Part shown: positions 17,230 to 43,932 of the stretch, piece by piece | Numbering within the stretch: the stretch's first letter is position 1 | How the letters are laid out: each line of letters begins with the position of its first letter | Assembly: GCA_951406725.2 (NCBI GenBank) | Contig: OX597814.1 | Location: forward strand, 181,846,001-181,910,000 | DNA from: Octopus vulgaris | Taxonomy: Eukaryota | Reading direction: 5' to 3' | DNA: 64,000 nucleotides | Program-made: the position numbers and the translations under genes | Notes under the pieces: generated by a model | What the model was told of the DNA's origin: nothing | The model's input: the letters and a program-made list of their open reading frames with translations, nothing else | Database searches by the model: none

Positions 17230-18237
17230 ATATATAAGAAATTAAAAAAAGGAAAATACACACACTTTACATAGTTTAATATAATTTTTAATATATCGAC
17301 TGGTTTCGCTTTTGCTATTCATGATATTATGGTTTACTTATTTGAATACGTATTTTCTTAAGAAGAAATTTTTGTCCATGTTATGTGTGATGATATTTAC
17401 GAGTGAATGCCTTCATAAGTAGAGAAATGAGGGGAGCTAATTGGTTATTGTTTTTGTTGTAGGTTAGGGAGATAACTTCAGCTTTCCGTAAGGGGAGGGG
17501 AATATATATATGTACACACAAAAAAGGGTTTCAAAAACTTGTTTAGTGAGGGGATTCGTGATGTAATCGTGAAATATGTAAAAAGATATAAGTTGGTTAT
17601 GCGTGCATATTAAGACGTGTTCTGTATTTTTCAACGAAAAAGTTTCTTTATTTAAATGTTCTTGTGGAGAGATTGTGTCTTTGTACTGGTAGAAGGGGAA
17701 GACTGTGAAATTTGGTTTGATGTTATCTGCACATTTTTCTATATGTTCACTGAGAGGAATTTGCCTGTATTGCGGGGAAACGGATTTGTTCTTTATGTAG
17801 AGTTGTTCTCCTTCTCAAGGTCATACTTGTCTGTCCAATATAGTTGTGTCCGCAACCCGAGCAGGTTATTACATAAATTAGGTTCTCAGAAGCACAAGTG
17901 AAACTAGTTTTAATTGTGAACCTATGTCCTTGTTTGAGAAGGAAATCCGAGCCTTCAAGTTGGGGCAGGTTCCAAAGTTTGGGCATGCACATTTTTTAAC
18001 CGTTGGTTTCGTGGTTGTTTTGTAAAGCTTCGCATTTGTTAGTAGTCTCTTTAGCGATTTGTGTTGCTTTTTGCCTTTGATGAGTTTATGCATTTTCAGG
18101 ATGTTGTTCATTTTTGGATCTCTAGTTAGTAAAGGAAGATTTTGCACAATAGTGTTGAATGCCTCACTGTTTCTGGGGTTGTGTGTTGATATAAATAGTA
18201 GTGTTTCGAGGTTCAGTAAAACAGCTCTCAGGTACAT
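17230..18237 (-). mobile_element. Penelope-like element (Neptune-like), 3' part: RT thumb/Cys linker, GIY-YIG endonuclease, pLTR
   Basis: Frameshifted translation ..KKCACPNFGTCP..FTCASENLIYVITCSGCGHNYIGQT..LRRRTTLHKEQI..FPFYQ..; hammerhead motif in the downstream non-coding end. Confidence 0.88.
17293..17327 (-). ncRNA. Minimal hammerhead ribozyme, A3-U8 core variant
   Basis: Minus strand: atatc ATGAATA gc-aaaa-gc GAAA ccag TC gatat. Confidence 0.65.
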
Positions 18238-28949: not shown

Positions 28950-29339
28950 ATATTAGGGAATAAATCCAAATTTACAGGGAAAAATCAGATTTAGGATTGA
29001 ATCCAATTTTATAGTAAAATATATTATATTAAATTAGAGACAAAACCACTATTATGCAAATCAAACAAAGAAAGACTTAAGCCAATACATAAAATAATTT
29101 ATATAATTAAATTTAATTAAAATAACCACTACGATCGTTTCATGTCAGCACTTCTATGAGACATTCTTCAGGTGGTTTCAAAACCTTCTTTGCAAGTTTT
29201 AAACTAGTGCTGACACGAAACGATCGTAGTGGTTATTTTAATTAAATTTAATTATATAAATTATTCTATGTATTGGCTTAAGTCTTTCTTTGTTTCATTT
29301 GCATAATAGTGGTTTTGTCTCTAATTTATTATAATATAT
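28950..29339 (-). mobile_element. Short Penelope-type insertion with inverted pLTR (~134-bp arms)
   Basis: Arms 29019-29152 and 29206-29339 are near-perfect reverse complements; contains a hammerhead; related to 45253-45735; flanked by (TA)n. Confidence 0.8.
29124..29177 (-). ncRNA. Type-I hammerhead ribozyme, canonical core
   Basis: aaccac CTGAAGA atgtc-tcatagaagtgct-gacat GAAA cgatcg TA gtggtt: all core nucleotides, stems I and II and a palindromic stem III. Confidence 0.85.
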
Positions 29340-30039: not shown

Positions 30040-30655
30040 TTACTCTAAAGCTCTTTTACAACTGCACCCCATGCATAATAATCAACAGGATTGCAGTCTG
30101 GGGAGTTAGGTGACCAGATGTTAGGGGTGATGTGGTTGCAGAAATTGTCTGACAGCTATGACTGGGTTCGTCTGCTTGTGTGGTTTGGTGCAGAGTCATG
30201 GGAAGATGAATGGAGGCATAACATCGCCATCACTACTGATCACTCTGAACATCATAATGTTGACTGGGTGTTTGATTTTTATTATTCTCAGTATATGTTT
30301 TGGGGACACAGCAAGCCAATGGTTGTTCTGATCTTGGTAGAAATATTTCTCGTCTGAGAAACACCAAAGCATTGGTTGGAGGGGAAGCTTGAGTTTGTTC
30401 AAAAGCTTCGTAGCATGATCTTTCCTCTTGTCCTTGATGGCTTGGGATAAAAATTGGCCCGTTCTCATCTTGTATTCAGAATACCAAATATCTTCATGAA
30501 CTACATGCCTGATAAGAAACTCAGGCACTACCATGGCCCTGGTGATGGACCTGATTGGTTTAAAGGGCTCATTGTCAATCATGGCCTGGATCTCACCAGT
30601 AAATTCAGGACACTTTTTCTTATCAGAGTGATCAGAATGAGTTTTACGAGCTGCT
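30040..30655 (-). mobile_element. Tc1/mariner-superfamily transposase fragment (possibly DD37D/maT-like)
   Basis: FSDEKYF, HPVNIMMFRVISSDGDVMPPFIF and WSPNSPDCNPVDYY motifs. Confidence 0.8.
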
Positions 30656-31743: not shown

Positions 31744-31779
31744 CTTTCTGTAGAAGAGCGTAGGCTCGAAACGTAAAAG
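31744..31779 (+). ncRNA. Minimal hammerhead-ribozyme-like motif (A6U variant) in a pLTR-like repeat
   Basis: cttt CTGTAGA a gagc-gtag-gctc GAAA cg TA aaag; flanks resemble the 6.35-6.57 kb repeat (..TTTC(C)TGAGCGT..TAATAC..). Confidence 0.6.
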
Positions 31780-31867
31780 ACTTTCTATTTCTGAGCGTTA
31801 TACTAATACATCTGTTTCTTTTGTACACCGCCTGTCTTCGTCTTTTGTTTTTTTCGTAAACTCTCCC

Positions 31868-32162
31868 TATATATATTATATGTATGTATATATATATATA
31901 TGTATTATATGTATATGTATTATGTGTATATATATATATGTATTATGTGTATATATATATGTATTATATGTATATATATATATATATATTATGTATTATA
32001 TGTATATATATATATATTATTATATGTATATATATATATGTATTATATGTATATATATATGTATTATATGTATATATATATGTATTATATGTATATATAT
32101 ATGTATTATATGTATATATGTATGTTATATGTATATATGTATTATATGTATATATATATGTG

Positions 32163-32198
<36 letters not shown>

Positions 32199-32400
32199 TA
32201 TTGTATATATATATGTATTACATGTATATGTATATATATATGTATTACATGTATATGTATATATATATGTATTACATGTATATGTATATATATATGTATT
32301 ACATGTATATGTATATATATATGTATTACATGTATATATATATATATGTATTATATGTATATATATATATATATATATATGTATTATATGTATATATATA
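31868..32400. repeat. Compound (TA)n/TATGTATTA microsatellite
   Basis: Directly visible low-complexity array. Confidence 0.97.
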
Positions 32401-33516
32401 GCACGCAAATAGTGAGCGGTGTTCCACAGGGCACTGTTTTGGGACCACTACTGTTCATAATGGCCCTCTCAGACATGCCCTCAGCCACGCGGAGAGCCAC
32501 GATCACAAGTTATGCAGATGATACAAAAGTTTCACAGGCAATACAGAACCCTGAAGACACTAGGCACCTGCAATATGAGCTGGACGAAATATACAAGTGG
32601 GCTGAAAAGAATAGCATGCAGTTCAATGCTGAAAAGTTTCAAGCTTTATACTATCAGCATGCAAAACTGAATGCAATACCCAAGGAATACACTGGACCCG
32701 GAGGGATTGCAATCCCAGAGGCACAATCAGTGCGTGACCTGGGTATTCACATGAGTGATGACGCGACCTTTCATGTACATGTTGCTAAACTGACAATGAA
32801 ATGCAGACGGCTGGCTGGATGGATTCTTAGAACCTTTAGAACAAGAGAACAAGAATCCATGATGGTCCTCTGGAAGACACTTGTCCTAAGTCACTTTGAC
32901 TATTGCTCTCAGCTATGGTCACCATCCAGTGTCAAGTTGATCACAGAACTTGAGGCGATCCAACGAAGCTACACGAAGAAGATAGCCTCTATGCAGAATG
33001 TAAGCTACTGGGAAAGACTCAAGAGATTAAAATTATATTCCCTGGAGCGTAGGCGGGAAAGATATGCCATAATATACATCTGGAAGATCCTGGAGGGAAG
33101 TGTCCTGAACTTTGGCATTGAGAGTTACGCAAATGCCAGAACTGGGCGCCACTGCGTGGTGCCTAGGACTCCAAACTTGCCATCAAGATGTAGGACAAGA
33201 TTCTGTGATAGCCTGGGCTTCCGAGGCCCACAGCTCTTCAATATCCTCCCGATGAACCTGAGAGACCTGCATGGGGTGGATACAGATGTCTTTAAAATGG
33301 AGCTGGATCTCTTCCTGTCAGGTGTCCCAGATGAACCAACTTCACGGCAGGAGGGGCAGATGAGGGCAGCTGCATCGAACTCTCTCATGCACCAAATAGC
33401 AGTTGCTAGAAAGCCTCCGTGAAGTGAAACCAAGTAGCAACACCAAATGGCGGTGCCCCAGCATGGCCACAGCTCATAAGCTGAAACTAGAATCAATCAA
33501 TCAATCAATCAATCAA
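32400..33516 (+). mobile_element. CR1/L2-group LINE, 5'-truncated, RT C-terminal frame intact
   Basis: SGVPQGTVLGPLLF, YADDTK, VRDLGI, FDYCSQLWSP; stop 33422; tail stem-loop then (AATC)n. Confidence 0.95.
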
Positions 33517-33552
33517 TATATATGTATTATATGTATATATATGTATTATATG

Positions 33553-33589
<37 letters not shown>

Positions 33590-33802
33590 GTATTATATGT
33601 ATATATATATATGTATTATATGTATATATATATATGTATTATATGTATATATATATATGTATTATATGTATATATATATATATGTATTATATGTATATAT
33701 ATATATATGTATTATATGTATATATATATATGTATATATATATATGTATTATATGTATATATATATATGTATTATATGTATATATATATATGTATGTATA
33801 TG

Positions 33803-33855
<53 letters not shown>

Positions 33856-33875
33856 TATATGTATATATGTATGTT

Positions 33876-33912
<37 letters not shown>

Positions 33913-34024
33913 TATATTATATATATATATATGTATGTATTATATATATATATATATGTATGTATATATTATATATATATATATATATGTATGTATTATA
34001 TGTATATATATATATATATGTATG

Positions 34025-34118
<94 letters not shown>

Positions 34119-34156
34119 TATATATATATATATATATGTATGTATATATTATATTA

Positions 34157-34210
<54 letters not shown>

Positions 34211-34239
34211 TATATGTATATATATATATATGTATGTAT

Positions 34240-34270
<31 letters not shown>

Positions 34271-34333
34271 GTATGTATTATATGTATATATATATATGTA
34301 TGTATTATATGTATATATATATATGTATGTATG

Positions 34334-34366
<33 letters not shown>

Positions 34367-35584
34367 TATATGTATATATATATATATGTATTATATGTTA
34401 TATATATATATGTATTATATGTTATATATATATATGTATGTATTATATGTATATATATATATGTATGTATTTATATATATATATATATATGTATGTATTA
34501 TATGTATATATATATATATGTATGTATTATATGTATATATATATATATGTATGTATATATTATATATATATATATATGTATGTATTATATGTATATATAT
34601 ATATATGTATGTATTACATGTATATATATATATATATGTATTATATATATATATATATATGTATGTATTACATGTATATATATATATATATGTATGTATT
34701 ACATGTATATATATATATATGTATGTATTACATGATATATATATATATGTATGTATTACATGTATATATATATATATGTATGTATTACATGTATATATAT
34801 ATATGTATGTATTACATGTATATATATATATGTATGTATACATGTATATATATATTTGTATGTATTACATTATATATATATATGTATGTATTACATGTAT
34901 ATATATATATGTATGTATTACATGTATATATATATATGTATGTATTACATGTATATATATATATATGTATGTATTACATGTATATATATATATGTATGTA
35001 TTACATGTATATATATATATATGTATGTATTACATGTATATATATATATATGTATGTATTACATGTATATATATATATATGTATGTATTACATGTATATA
35101 TATATATGTATGTATTACATGTATATATATATATGTATGTATTACATGTATATATATATATATGTATGTATTACATGTATATATATATATATATGTATGT
35201 ATAATTTATATATATATATGTATGTATTAATGTATATATATATATGTATGTATACATATATATATATATGTATGTATTACATGTATATATATATATGTAT
35301 GTATTACATATATATATATATGTATGTATTACATGTATATATATATATGTATGTATTACATGTATATATATATTATTATAATATATATATATGTATGTAA
35401 TATATTATATATATATATATGTATGTATTACATGTATATATATATGTATATATTACATGTTATATATATATATGTATTACATGTATATATATATATATAT
35501 GTATTACATGTATATATATATATATATGTATTACATGTATATATATATATATATGTATTACATATATATATATGTGTGTATATA

Positions 35585-35679
<95 letters not shown>

Positions 35680-35794
35680 GTGTATATATATATATATGTG
35701 TGTATATATATATATGTGTATATATATATATATGTGTATGTATATATATATATATGTGTATATATATATATATGTGTATATATATATATATGTG

Positions 35795-35829
<35 letters not shown>

Positions 35830-35864
35830 GTGTGTATATATATATATGTGTATATATATATGTG

Positions 35865-35963
<99 letters not shown>
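33517..35963. repeat. Large compound TA-based satellite array
   Basis: Units such as (TA)nTGTATTATATG, then (TA)nTGTATGTATTACATG, then (TG)n/(TA)n. Confidence 0.97.
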
Positions 35964-35964
35964 T

Positions 35965-37263
35965 GCTATGGACACATAAGAGGTGCAGCAATGTCATAGG
36001 GAGGCTAACTAGGAAGATGGTTTTCGTATGTGGCAGATGCTCGGGAGCATTAACCTCTGAAAATCTGCAGAAAACAACTTCCGTCACTTTCCAGGGGGAA
36101 AAACTAGAAGTAGTTGATAGCTTCCGTTATCTTGGTGACCAAGTCAGTAGTGGGGGTGGGTGTGCTGAAAGTGTAACGGCTAGAGTAAGAATAGCCTGGG
36201 CAAAGTTTAGGGAGCTCTTACCTCTGCTGGTGACTAAAGGCCTCTCGCTCAGAGTAAAAGGCAGACTGTATGATGCATGTGTACGAACAGCCATGCTACA
36301 TGGCAGTGAAACATGGGCCGTGACTGCTGAGGACATGCGTAAGCTCGCGAGAAATGAAGCCAGTATGCTCCGATGGATGTGTAATGTCAGTGTGCATGCT
36401 CGACAGAGCGTTAGTACCCTGAGAGAAATGTTGGACCTAAGGAGCATCAGTTGTGGTGTGCAAGAGAGACGATTGCGCCGGTATGGTCATGTGGCGAGAA
36501 TGGATGAAGATAGGTGTGTGAAAAAGTGCCAATCCCTAACAGTGGAGGGAACCCGTGGAAGAGGTAGTACAGGAAAACTTGGGACGAGGTGGTGAAGTAC
36601 GACCTTCGAACTTTAGGTCTCACTGAGGAAATGACCAGCGACCGAGACCTTTGGAAATATGCTGTGCGGGAAAAAACCAGGCAGGACAAGTGAGTCCAGC
36701 CCACTTATGCATGCCTTTCCTCCCTTGGACACACAAAGACCTGTTGAGGCAAGCGAAACGATATCGAACCTCATCCGACGACAGGCTTGCGAAGACCTGT
36801 TGGGGCAAGTGAAATCGGAATCGAAATTGAACCAATCCTATGACTGGCACCTGGCAGATGCCAGGACCCCTGGACTGGAGATACGTAAAAAGCACTATCC
36901 GAATCGTGGCCAATGCCAGCGCCGCTTCGACTGGCTTCCGTGTCGGTGGCACGTAGAAAGCACCATCCGAATCGTGGCCGAAGCCAGTGCCGCCTCGACT
37001 GGCTTCTGTGCAGGTAGCATGTAAAATGCACCAATCCGACCGTGGCCGATGCCAGCCTCACCTGGCACCAGTGCAGGTGGCACGTAAAAAGCACCCACTA
37101 CACTCACGGAGTGGTTGGCGTTAGGAAGGGCATCCAGCTGTAGAAACATTGCCAGATAAGACCGGAGCCTGGTGCAGCCTTCTGGCTTCCCAGATCCCTG
37201 GTTGAACCGTCCAACCCATGCTAGCATGGAGAACGGACGTTAAACGATGATGATGATGATGAT
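35965..37263 (+). mobile_element. RTE-clade LINE, 5'-truncated
   Basis: [45 protein letters not shown]; frameshift near 36570; repeat-containing 3' UTR; (GAT)n tail. Confidence 0.95.
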
Positions 37264-37682: not shown

Positions 37683-37986
37683 TATATGTATATATATATA
37701 TATATGTATTATATGTATATACATATGTCCAACCCATGCTAGCATGGAGAACGGACGTTAAACGATGATGATGATATATATATATATGTATTATATGTAT
37801 ATATATATATGTATTATATGTATATATATATATGTATTATATGTATATATATATATGTATTATATGTATATATATATATGTATTATATGTATATATATAT
37901 ATGTATTATATGTATATATATATATGTGTTATATGTATATATATATATATGTATATATATGTATATATATATATATGTATTATATG

Positions 37987-38023
<37 letters not shown>

Positions 38024-38679
38024 GTATTATATGTATATATATATATGTATTATATGTATATATATATATGTATTATATGTATTATATGTATATATATATA
38101 TGTATTATATGTATTATATATATATATGTATTATATGTATTATATGTATTATATATATATATGTATTATATGTATTATATGTATATATATATATATGTAT
38201 TATATGTATATATATGTATTATATGTATATATATATGCATTATATGTATATATATATATTATATATATATATATGTATTATATGTATATATATATATGTA
38301 TTATATGTATATATATATGCATTATATGTATATATATATGTATTATATGTATATATATATGTATTATATGTATATGTATATATGTATATATATGTATATA
38401 TATATGTATTATATGTATATATGTATTATATGTATATATGTATTATATGTATATATGTATATGTATTATATGTATATATGTATATATATGTATATATGTA
38501 TATATGTATATATGTATATATGTATATATGTATATATGTATATGTATTATATGTATATATATATGTATATATATATGTATTATATGTATATATATATGTA
38601 TATATATATATGTATTATATGTATATATATATGTATTATATGTATATATATATGTATTATATGTATATATATATATGTA

Positions 38680-38721
<42 letters not shown>

Positions 38722-39164
38722 TATATGTATATATATATGTATTATATATATATATATATGTGTTATATGTATATATATATATGTATTATATGTATATATA
38801 TATATGTATTATATGTATATATATATGTATTATATGTATATATATATATATATGTATTATATGTATATATATATATATATATATGTATTATATGTATATA
38901 TATATATGTATTATATGTATATATATATGTATTATATGTATATATATATGTATTATATGTATATATTATATATATATATGTATTATATGTATATATATAT
39001 ATGTATTATATGTATTATATATATATATATATATGTATTATATGTATATATATATATATATGTATATATGTATTATATATATATATGTATATATATATAT
39101 GTATATATGTATTATATGTATATATATATATATATGTATATATGTATATATGTATATATGTATA

Positions 39165-39229
<65 letters not shown>

Positions 39230-39436
39230 GTATTATATGTATATATATATATATTATATATATATGTATTATATGTATATATATATGTATTATATGTATA
39301 TATATATATGTATTATATGTATATATATGTGTATTATATGTATATATGTATATGTATTATGTATATATGTATATGTATATATGTATATGTATATATATAT
39401 GTATATATATATATATATATTATATATATATATATG

Positions 39437-39507
<71 letters not shown>

Positions 39508-40568
39508 GTATTATATGTATATATATTATGTATGTATGTATGTATACATATATATATATATGTATTATATGTATATATATTATGTATGTATGTATACATA
39601 TATATATATATGTATTATATGTATATATTATATATGTATGTATACATATATATATATATGTATTATATGTATATATTATATATGTATGTATACATATATA
39701 TATATATATGTATTATATGTATATATTATATATGTTTGTATACATATATATATATATATATGTATTATATGTATATATTATATATGTTTGTATACATATA
39801 TATATATATATATATATGTATTATATGTATATATTATATATGTATGTATACATATATATATATATGTATTATATGTATATATTATGTATGTATACATATA
39901 TATATATATATATATATGTATTATATGTATATATATTATGTATGTATGTATACATATATATATATATATATATATGTATTATATGTATATTTATTATGTA
40001 TGTATGTATACATATATATATATATATATGTATTATATGTATATATATTATGTATGTATGTATACATATATATATATATATATATTATATGTATATATAT
40101 TATGTATGTATGTATACATATATATATATATATATATGTATTATATGTATATATATTATGTATGTATGTATACATATATATATATATATATGTATTATAT
40201 GTATATATATTATGTATGTATGTATACATATATATATATTATGTATGTATGTATACATATATATATATTATGTATGTATGTATACATATATATATATTAT
40301 GTATGTATGTATACATATATATATATTATGTATGTATGTATACATATATATATATTATGTATGTATGTATACATATATATATATTATGTATCTATGTATA
40401 CATATATATATATTATGTATCTATGTATACATATATACATATATTATGTATGTATACATATATATATGTATTATATGTATATATATTATGTATGTATGTA
40501 TACATATATATATATATGTATTATATGTATATATATTATATATGTATGTATATATATTATATATATTA
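37608..40568. repeat. Very large compound TA-based satellite array containing a 47-bp RTE tail (37727-37773)
   Basis: Directly visible; the unit changes to TATTATGTATGTATGTATACA(TA)n in the last kb. Confidence 0.97.
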
Positions 40569-41452
40569 CGCTACATTTAGGCATATCAATAAACAATTGA
40601 ATTTGAAATAGAATATTCTATTTCTTTACCTTACAACAAAGGTAAATATTTTTGCTTCCTTTGTAATAGTGAAATGTTTTTTATCCTATTCTCAAAGAAA
40701 CCTCTTGTAAACACATTTATAGAACACGTTTATTGTTGCAAACATTGGCAGAAACGTACCTAACCTTTGACTGTCTTGTTACATTGCACTTCCTCTAAAT
40801 ATATCTACTTCCATTCCTTTAAGCTATATTCTAATTTATCTATTGCTCTATATCTCTCCACTGTTGGTTTTCTGTCAGTTTCTTTCTTTCTCCTATTTCC
40901 ATAAACTACCTTTGATGTTATATCTACTGACGGTTTAAAAAAAAAAATTGACAGCATTCCCTTCATCACATACACAGTCATCACATTCTGTTAAAATGTC
41001 TTATTGATGTGTTTGGTTTCTTTCTTTCCCTCATGATAAGATTGCATTGTTTTACACCATTTTATTCATTCTGGAATAATACCAATGTTGTCTTTGAAAC
41101 ATGTTGGAAGTAAAACAATTTGAATAACACCTGCGTTTAACTCTATTTATTTATCTATATTATACAAAACATTTTCCTAAACCTGGAGTTTTTATCTTTA
41201 TACATAGGCTGTTACATCCTTGTTACTTAGGTGAATTCTTGCTACCTTGGTAACTGTTTATTTTTTTCCATGTTATTTGTAAACACTGGAAGAAAAGCAG
41301 ACATACATTTATATATATATATATATAATGTATATATGTATATGTATGTATATATGTACTGTTGTGTCTGGGGAGAGTCATTTTCTTTTTGTGCCTTATA
41401 ATTTAACACACTCCTCCGGTAAAATTTCCACTTATTTCTTATTTTTATTTTC

Positions 41453-41639: not shown

Positions 41640-42310
41640 GGGAAAGTAAGAAAAATAGACGAAAATGCACATTGTAAAAAGTCTTTTTATGCAAGGTAAT
41701 GAAAAATATATACAATTTTGATGAACTGAGGTAGGAATAAAAGTAATAAAAGTCATTATTGTGAAATTATTAAAGAGATTCAAGCATACTGGTTTCGTAA
41801 GTTACTAATCATTGCTTTGAATACAACTATTCATTGTTTTTTGCTTTGAATACAACTATTCATTGGTTTGAATGCATACTGATTAATGGATGGTGTCAGG
41901 TCTAATAGTTCCTGAGAAAAAAGATTATTTGTAACTGAGGTAAGTGGTTCTGGATTTGGTGCAGTTAGGTTAGATATAGAATTGTAATGTGAATGGTGTA
42001 AGGGATGTATGGGAGTTAGAGGTATTAATTGCAAGGTTAGTAGTGTTCTGTATTATGTTATGTGTTCATATTTAGTTGGGGAAGATATTTATTGATGAAA
42101 GTTACCTCTTTATTCATTCTTTGTTGCATTGAGGTGTTCTGTGAACATTGATAAAAGGGGAAAATTTGGAAATTAGGATTAAGATTCCTAGCACACCTTT
42201 CTATGTGTTCACTAACCTGTAACTGTCTGTATTGTGGGTGGCAGATTTGTTCTTTGTGGATAGTGGTTCTTCGACGGAGTGATATCCCTGTTTGGCTAAT
42301 ATAGTTGCCT
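41640..42310 (-). mobile_element. Penelope-like element 3' end (GIY-YIG C-terminus + pLTR)
   Basis: Manual translation 42306-42058: NYISQTGISLRRRTTIHKEQICHPQYRQLQVSEHIERCARNLNPNFQIFPFYQCSQNTSMQQRMNKEVTFINKYLPQLNMNT*, homologous to 17.6-17.85 kb; absent from the ORF track. Confidence 0.85.
41782..41817 (-). ncRNA. Minimal hammerhead ribozyme, A3-U8 core variant
   Basis: Minus strand: aagca ATGATTA gta-act-tac GAAA ccag TA tgctt. Confidence 0.68.
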
Positions 42311-42699: not shown

Positions 42700-43932
42700 C
42701 TAGAAGCCACTTGATGTGACCTCCAGGCAGCAGTCTGCCAACCGGTGTTGTTGACTAATGTTGTACTGCCACGTGGTGCATCTTTGTTTTGCAGTGCTTC
42801 TCATCTGTTCATCGATTTCTGTGATGGCTGAAATGAAGGAACAGCATACCTCCCTGAAATTCTGTTTTCTGCTGAGGAAAATGGCAACCAAAATAGTTGT
42901 CATGCTTCAAACAGCTTACAAAGATGCTGCCATGAGCAAAACACAAGTTTACAAGTGGTTTTCATTCTTTAGGAATGGTGAGTTGTTGCTTGAAGACCAA
43001 CCTTGTTCAGGGTGACTGTTGACCTGCCAAACGAATGAAAACATCATGAAAATTCATGAACTGATCTTAGAGGACCATTGCTGAACAGTTGACAAACTTG
43101 TTGATATGACTGGTGTGTCCTGGAGCTCCTGCCAATGAATTCTGAGCAAGGAATTGTGAATGAAAAGAGCTGCAGCAAAATTGGTTTTGTGCCTTGCTTG
43201 CTCACAGAACTTAAAAAAACAGTAACAAGTGAATGTGTGTCGTGAACTGAAAGAACAGTTGCAAGTTGATCTGGACTTTTTATATGTAGGTCATCACTGG
43301 TGATAAATTCTGCTGCTACGGCTATGACCTGGAAATCAAGTCAATGGAAGCATTCAATGTCAACACGCCCCCAAAAAGTGTCAAGTCCAATGTCAAGATG
43401 ATGCTGATTTGTTTCATTGATGTGAAAGGAATTGTCCACACAAAATTTGTTCCTCCTGGTCAAATTGTTTACCAGATATTTACTTGGCAGTTCTGATGTG
43501 TTTGCAAGATGTGGTGAGGTTAAAATGCCACGACCTGTGGCAAAGTGGAGTGTTGTAATTTCATCATGACAATGCACCTGTGCATATTGCCTTGAGTGTG
43601 AGACAATTTTTTTGACCAAAAGTGGCATGACCCCACTTATCTTCCCTATTTGCCTGATCTTGCTCCCTGCAACTTTTTTTTTTTGTTCCCCTGAATGCAA
43701 AAAGTCCCCAAAGGAAAACGTTTTGCAGATGTGGAAAAGGTGAAAAAAACAACAGAGGTGTTAAAAAAAGCATCACTTCACAAGAGTCCCAGGACTGCTT
43801 CAAACAGTGGAATACTCGTCTGGACCAATGCATTGCTTCAAATGTAGAATACTTTGAAGGCGATAAAAGTATAAAGCTAAGTGAATACAATAATATTGCA
43901 AAATTCCAGTTTCTTTTGGGTACTCCTTGATA
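42700..43932 (+). mobile_element. Mariner transposon, decayed
   Basis: MAEMKEQHTSLKFCFLL..LQTAYKDAAMSKTQVYKWF HTH region, ITGDK, HHDNAP, PDLAPCNFF motifs; 3' TIR + TA at ~43932; left boundary uncertain. Confidence 0.9.

Follow-up and report, generated by a model that had tools for sequence, protein, structure and literature searches.

Penelope-like elements (PLEs) of one lineage in the genome of Octopus vulgaris carry minimal type-I hammerhead motifs in which A3-U8 stands in place of the C3-G8 pair, and this is confirmed as the family-level state rather than the decay of two individual copies. The observation, made in a window of 64,000 nucleotides (the whole stretch of DNA that was analysed, on contig OX597814.1), is real and larger than first seen. 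The initial annotation had pictured an A3-U8 lineage; the family-level part of that picture stands, but it proved too narrow, as the same lineage uses four types of 3-8 pair (A-U, G-C, U-A and U·G), and the phylogenetic trees indicate that the pair has been switched repeatedly.

Hammerhead motifs and element fragments in the window

Both motifs are on the minus strand: copy A (41817-41782) reads aagca AUGAUUA guaacuuac GAAA CCAG UA ugcuu, and copy B (17327-17293) reads auauc AUGAAUA gcaaaagc GAAA CCAG UC gauau. The features of the two elements are as follows.

41782..41817, minus strand: copy A, minimal type-I hammerhead motif (sequence scan, family copies and fold)
41817-41813 paired with 41786-41782, minus strand: copy A stem I
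41812-41806, minus strand: copy A core A3-A9, AUGAUUA, with A3 at 41812 and U8 at 41807 replacing C3/G8
41805-41797, minus strand: copy A stem II
41796-41793, minus strand: copy A GAAA
41788..41793, minus strand: copy A stem III hexamer ACCAGU (in relatives, ACCGGU or a longer ACCGCGGU-type strand, both self-complementary)
3' of A17 at 41787, minus strand: copy A predicted cut
41813..41864, minus strand: tandem repeat of the stem I 5' strand and partial core, directly upstream of the copy A motif
41640..42057, minus strand: copy A 3' untranslated region/pseudo-LTR, finishing near a (TA)n tract, with an approximate 3' end
42058..42307, minus strand: copy A C-terminal PLE GIY-YIG endonuclease fragment, to the stop codon, of a 5'-truncated copy (tblastn and translation)
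17293..17327, minus strand: copy B, minimal type-I hammerhead motif, with core AUGAAUA at 17322-17316 and stem III decayed to ACCAGU
3' of C17 at 17298, minus strand: copy B predicted cut
17597..18228, minus strand: copy B broken linker and GIY-YIG fragment, with a CX4CXXC zinc-finger linker (Neptune type)

The order of stem I, core, stem II, GAAA, stem III, UH and stem I, expected of a minimal type-I PLE hammerhead, is present. The motif of copy A, noted as about 240 nt past the GIY-YIG stop codon (42060-42058), lies 241 nt past it, and that of the homologous PLE at 17.2-18.2 kb is at the similar distance of 270 nt from its own stop codon (17599-17597). Copy A is a 5'-truncated stub that starts near 42307, and its endonuclease fragment matches an intact relative at 56% over 79 amino acids (tblastn, E 1e-24); no Pfam detection was obtained for the 83-aa endonuclease fragment. 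The GIY-YIG fragment of copy B matches an intact relative with a tblastn E value of 2e-30. Endonuclease DNA of the two elements is approximately 69% alike across 160 nt, and the open reading frames of both are broken. The tandem repeat of stem I and partial core is a subfamily trait of which copy A has one extra unit, and it supplies an alternative 5' half for the hammerhead.

A relaxed hammerhead scan of the window gave five matches, namely copies A and B, a canonical motif at 29124-29177, and two that are chance-like. No hammerhead family was among the best 150 of 290 rows of an Rfam scan of the window, and at the Rfam gathering threshold there were no matches on seven loci, including three canonical minimal hammerheads, so that the Rfam score is uninformative for minimal motifs; the expectation that CUGANGA-type or Rfam searches miss the variant is thus borne out. 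Elsewhere in the window, decayed sequence at 30100-30650 and 42700-43900 resembles what is presumably Tc1/mariner transposase, and long AT-rich microsatellite and minisatellite tracts with extreme GC skew (31750-36100 and 37700-40600) yield spurious frames of 400-950 amino acids and miRNA matches.

Family state of positions 3 and 8

Copies of the families of copies A and B were fetched by means of an upstream untranslated sequence that lacks the core (30 of 41 matches listed for family A, 30 of 40 for family B), and one locus of the 30 in each family was without motif coverage, leaving 29 covered copies each. A3-U8 is present in 28 of the 29 covered copies of family A, some of which are non-independent local duplicates on contig C23, and in 26 of the 29 of family B. 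All 29 family A copies have A3 and 28 have U8; the exceptions are one A3·G8 copy in family A and three A3·C8 copies in family B. A CUGANGA consensus, looked for by this core-free retrieval, was not found: C3-G8 is present in none of the 58 covered copies, and instead of the literal C3/G8 the families have A3-U8, in keeping with the earlier proposal that the lineage itself, and not decay, accounts for the change. Elsewhere in the core, U4, G5, A6, A9, G12, A13, A14 and A15.1-U16.1 are the majority in both families (each at least 25/29), position 17 is A or C in the family majority, and position 7 is variable (16 U and 13 A in family A).

The lineage-specific pattern, with its own stem I background, has 226 matches in the genome and none in the reversed control, so the lineage motif exceeds chance. 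A hand count of the first 100 of the 226 matches listed gave 80 A-U, 15 G-C, five unpaired and no C-G, that is, 95 Watson-Crick pairs at 3-8.

Stems, palindrome and predicted dimers

The folding energy of the monomers is unremarkable (z of -0.63 and -0.91), and the evidence for the structure is therefore comparative, not thermodynamic. In a structural alignment of 18 representatives, which were hand-picked and whose relatedness inflates the pairing figures, 96.5% of 171 cells are paired, compared with 23-38% in slid controls. The 3-8 column pairs in 17 of 17 cells, with one wobble (AU 5, GC 5, CG 4, UA 2, UG 1), and shows the covariation that had been suspected from two copies. Stems I and II, described as differing in sequence yet pairing, do so across these 18 hand-picked rows: all five stem I pairs change on both sides, covariation is present in both stems, and G10.1-C11.1 is G-C in 16 of the 18 rows. 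Stem II is just 1-3 bp long, with 10.2-11.2 unpaired in two of 17 cells. Irregular stem I junctions occur in the young U3-A8/U3·G8 families represented by L002, L137, L191, L197 and L208, where an additional U separating stem I from position 3, or an unclean position 17, shifts the register of stem I.

The loop of the window copies is CCAG, and that of intact relatives is CCGG within the stem III strand ACCGGU. On comparison of these sequences, the CCAG of both window copies is a decayed CCGG palindrome, likely through CpG decay. Among the raw copies of family A, 15 of 29 have a 4-nt CCGG-type loop, intact in nine, and the other 14 a longer one of CCGCGG type, and both types give self-complementary stem III strands; these counts are from raw copies, the stem III insertion of 2-3 nt being invisible in the reference-projected alignment. 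The lengthened ACCGCGGU-type palindrome marks a sister subfamily (L365, L369, L372 and 11 more family A copies, 14/29). Self-duplex formation by the hexamer is calculated at +1.4 kcal/mol for the window ACCAGU and -8.3 kcal/mol for the intact version. Among copies passing the strict pattern, to which dimer cofolding was limited, a double hammerhead is the predicted minimum-energy fold of the dimer in six of seven copies of family A and ten of 20 of family B with the palindrome intact, and in none of three copies of either family without it. Intact copies are therefore predicted to fold as double hammerheads through a palindromic stem III. The palindrome is found in the family and not in the two window copies, both of which are probably inactive because it is broken.

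Genome-wide occurrence of 3-8 combinations

The genome (2.8 Gb in 227 contigs) was searched with the pattern N3-UGA-N-N8-A, 7-11 nt, GAAACC(G/A)G-UH, with the reversed pattern as control. Any 3-8 combination gave 6976 matches (1156 in the control). U3-A8 had 3107 (99), A3-U8 1791 (303), G3-C8 170 (27) and C3-G8 45 (19); the remaining combinations had 395 for U3 (244), 362 for A3 (193) and 161 for G3 (198). These counts are lower bounds, because longer palindromes escape the pattern. Together, U3-A8, A3-U8 and G3-C8 exceed their controls in this genome by about 4,600 motifs. Both stem criteria were satisfied by 19 of 32 fetched A3-U8 matches, only seven of 30 G3-C8 matches, and none of 29 distinct C3-G8 matches. 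Among the first 100 of the 395 U3-other matches listed, 57 are the young U3·G8 wobble family.

About 945 matches, by subtraction, have C3 with a base other than G8 (17 of the first 100 matches listed for the any-pair pattern). They were rejected as a hammerhead family, because most are chance matches on the strand opposite the reverse transcriptase ORF in a young element that is presumably of a LINE type. Copies of this LINE (L001, L018 and relatives, roughly 900 in number) are 90-99% alike and have long reverse transcriptase frames. The chance match within it is the sole non-pairing cluster, and all clustered PLE families with at least three copies have a pairing 3-8 majority. A separate search of IMG/VR gave three A3-U8 pattern matches, none with stem I, which were taken as chance.

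The hammerhead at 29124-29177 of the window (minus strand) is a canonical C3-G8 minimal motif; it lies in an inverted-repeat stub, and its palindrome is CGAUCG. Its pattern has 390 genomic matches and none in the control, with no PLE ORF nearby in 15 fetched loci. C3-G8 is present in 96 of the first 100 of the 390 matches listed, and retention of C3-G8 by this unrelated family indicates that its loss elsewhere is lineage-specific, not an effect of genome-wide mutation.

Carrier elements

The carrier appears from its sequence to be a Neptune-type PLE, a label that comes from the linker. A CX2-5CXXC zinc-finger linker precedes the endonuclease in copy B and in the relative L195, and the linker definition available from the text of PMC8557442 fits Neptune or Nematis. 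The elements show the single-ORF layout in which reverse transcriptase precedes a C-terminal GIY-YIG domain: L195 has a stop-free frame of 718 amino acids with RVT_1, homologues carry PF00078 and often PF01541, and broken A3/G3 copies retain similarity from reverse transcriptase to endonuclease. An endonuclease was found by tblastn within 700 nt upstream of 21/57 A3-U8, 14/30 G3-C8 and 27/40 U3-A8 motifs, but of only 2/29 C3-G8 pattern matches. Tandem pseudo-LTRs are present in the U3 families (L191 and L341) and inverted pLTR pairs in the A3/G3 families (L343-L346). The six long A3/G3 copies that were fetched have broken frames and only a 3' motif, with no second hammerhead in tandem upstream. 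Repeats that are 97-99.9% alike mark the U3-A8 and U3·G8 families as young; the U3·G8 family (L208, L341 and relatives) is homogeneous and includes one copy with tandem pLTRs about 4 kb apart. Contigs from four sequencing runs (two organism labels) cover the family stretch, although contigs cannot show RNA ends. PLE reverse transcriptase genes are also present in contigs of GTDB bacterial bins (L296-L334; a single Stappiaceae bin has 26 of the loci), where they are probably host DNA contamination.

History of the 3-8 pair

Among homologous elements from outside this genome, 119 PLE loci include 13 with C3-G8 and eight with U3-A8, some of which share the 2-bp stem II and CCGG loop at the homologous position. 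A strict scan of these 119 loci found no A3-U8 or G3-C8, but this absence is weak because just 16 of 43 loci with adequate 3' flank yielded any motif. Eleven outside U3·U8 matches from one repeated element, and one outside U3-A8 match within an ORF, were set aside as either unresolved or due to chance. A nearby homologue carries the label Argonauta hians.

In a protein tree of 52 rows, the elements of this genome group together in a single clade (100/100), C3-G8 is the state of the closest outside clade with labels (5/5), and a purine3-pyrimidine8 subclade (99/93) is sister to the pyrimidine3-purine8 families (99/97). An endonuclease DNA tree of 59 rows places copy B in one A3-U8 clade, and nests the A3-U8 subfamily of copy A among G3-C8 families under two starred branches. 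A constraint that joins the 17 A3 rows in one group is rejected (p-AU 0.001, for a group named after the tree was seen), so the window copies do not share one swap. The view that both copies inherited a single C3A+G8U change is therefore not supported, since the endonuclease tree puts G3-C8 families between the two and one common A3 clade is rejected. At a minimum, we infer a single inversion to purine-pyrimidine, a pair of A-U/G-C switches and a change from C-G to U-A, alongside which U·G occurs as a family state. The A3-U8 of the copy A family likely arose from G3-C8 via two transitions, and recombination of a short tract between subfamilies may have contributed. Only about four of the double changes are independent, a number that the thousands of copies do not raise.

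Proposed mechanism and alternative explanations

It is fairly probable, from the alignment, the predicted dimers and the known behaviour of related ribozymes, that the motif is a dimeric and probably protein-assisted self-cleaving one that processes tandem PLE transcripts, and in which the 3-8 pair has been kept and its identity changed. The pLTR hammerhead of active ancestors would have cut element RNA as a two-copy ribozyme, with stem III formed between two motifs by pairing of their ACCGGU (or ACCGCGGU) palindromes. In the mechanism reportedly set out by Martick and Scott in 2006, Watson-Crick pairing of 3 with 8 would keep nucleotide 8 with its 2'-OH at the scissile bond. Cleavage would follow H17, probably slowly and with the aid of the element's protein. 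As the pair, so long as it is kept, would position the 2'-OH, the identity of its bases would be free to change.

The PLE hammerhead of a lizard loses cleavage with either C3G or G8C alone and regains part of it when the two are combined; its cleavage requires the element's protein, and PLE insertion in vitro does not need cleavage (PMC11167929). The 3-8 pair is part of the catalytically arranged core, as stated in the text available from PMC3884650, and PLE minimal hammerheads cleave weakly according to the passages seen of PMC4209133. The existence of the young U3·G8 family implies that Watson-Crick pairing at 3-8 is not absolute. The repeated matched swaps likely mean that a self-cutting fold stayed under selection, the cutting itself being putative. 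A more ambitious version of this account is conceivable and somewhat doubtful: a purine-pyrimidine inversion followed by A3-U8/G3-C8 switching, with U3-A8/U3·G8 in the sister clade, would make these the first natural family-level active A3-U8/G3-C8 hammerheads, with PLE cleavage selected and thousands of motifs per genome hidden from CUGANGA searches.

It is unlikely that selection maintains the hammerhead fold, 3-8 contact included, for its structure, as a signal to the PLE protein for binding or reverse transcription, and that A3-U8 and G3-C8 no longer cleave meaningfully. The very short stems would suit such a role, as would the unimpaired insertion of hammerhead mutants in vitro, the absence of RNA-seq reads ending at the cut site (both PMC11167929) and the success of hammerhead-less PLE clades (PMC8557442, in the text available); but the 3-8 pair belongs to a core arranged for catalysis (PMC3884650, same portion), and the conservation of U4, G5, A6, A9, G12, A13, A14, A15.1 and U16.1, with A or C at 17 and variation at 7, is what a catalytic core predicts. 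Quite improbable is relaxed selection on the core, with 3-8 covariation a coincidence among a few masters that was amplified in copy number or shuffled by recombination. Against this stand the 3-8 pairing majority of every clustered PLE family of at least three copies, the rough odds of (1/3)^4 estimated for four pair-restoring changes, and the covariation of stem I together with a palindrome that grew from 6 to 8 nt and is still palindromic. In its favour are the small number of double changes on the trees (about four), the existence of a U3·G8 family, the irregularity of the stem I junction in the youngest families, the A3·C8 pairs of three of the 29 family B copies, and the 7-nt core of copy A, which is identical to that of another A3-U8 family. 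Chance decay of both window copies to A3/U8 from a canonical CUGANGA family is scarcely credible, for although both have decayed elsewhere (broken palindrome and broken ORFs), C3-G8 is missing from all 58 core-free copies and from the first 100 of the 226 lineage matches listed.

Relation to known hammerheads and implications

Any Watson-Crick 3-8 pair can reportedly cleave in vitro, as attributed to Przybilski and Hammann in 2007, and the chemistry proposed here is unsurprising, since laboratory 3-8 swaps are already known to function. By its sequence, the motif has all the structural features of PLE minimal hammerheads bar the literal C3/G8, its cleavage being putative. Features in common with the metazoan PLE minimal type-I hammerheads described in the accessible text of PMC4209133 include the pLTR site after a GIY-YIG ORF, the type-I order, G10.1-C11.1, a palindromic stem III that requires dimers, inverted truncated pairs and thousands of single copies. 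The U3-A8 found here is shared with the Cercyon elements of Schistosoma mansoni (Cervera and De la Pena 2014, PMC4209133, in the part available). Purine3/pyrimidine8 family states (A3-U8 and G3-C8) distinguish the present families from those hammerheads, for which the same text names U3-A8 alone, as do the four 3-8 pair types within one lineage and, relative to its consensus, a stem II of 1-3 bp without a bulged base after A9.

Natural U3-A8 hammerheads have thus been published (PMC3088659 and PMC4209133, excerpts). Natural 3-8 covariation was first reported among core variants by Perreault et al. 2011 (PMC3088659), the text of which, as far as available, gives U3-A8 only. The PAc hammerhead of a Poseidon element of Anolis (PMC11167929) is likewise a PLE ribozyme with 3-8-dependent cleavage and a need for protein, and an engineered G3-C8 partly rescues it; G3-C8 is there a laboratory mutant of C3-G8 in the Poseidon clade, whereas the present Neptune-type clade has it as a natural, family-level state. 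The PLE hammerheads of Lunse, Weinberg, Breaker 2017 have, to judge from the title and the review PMC6765202, a diminished stem III and dimer cleavage, as here. No natural A3-U8 or G3-C8 was found in a literature search of text rather than figures, in which the notation 'A3:U8' was not matchable, and which covered, within the portions available, supplements (file 2 of PMC4209133 and the text files of PMC3088659) as well as PMC6155905, PMC8495972, PMC10085705, PMC2920678 and bioRxiv 10.64898/2026.07.22.740005. Family-level A3-U8 and G3-C8 may therefore be new in nature relative to the available text of PMC4209133 and PMC3088659.

PLE hammerheads may merely parasitise their elements, a view found in PMC11167929 and in the accessible part of PMC8557442. 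Since the 3-8 pair lies in the catalytic core, its repeated compensatory swaps are comparative evidence for selection of the fold. Scaffolds that are nearly identical but have A-U, G-C, U-A, U·G or C-G at 3-8 already provide a natural test set. As the roughly 4,600 motifs are invisible to a CUGANGA descriptor, hammerhead censuses, and the classification of PLEs as having no hammerhead, may need a relaxed rule for positions 3 and 8.
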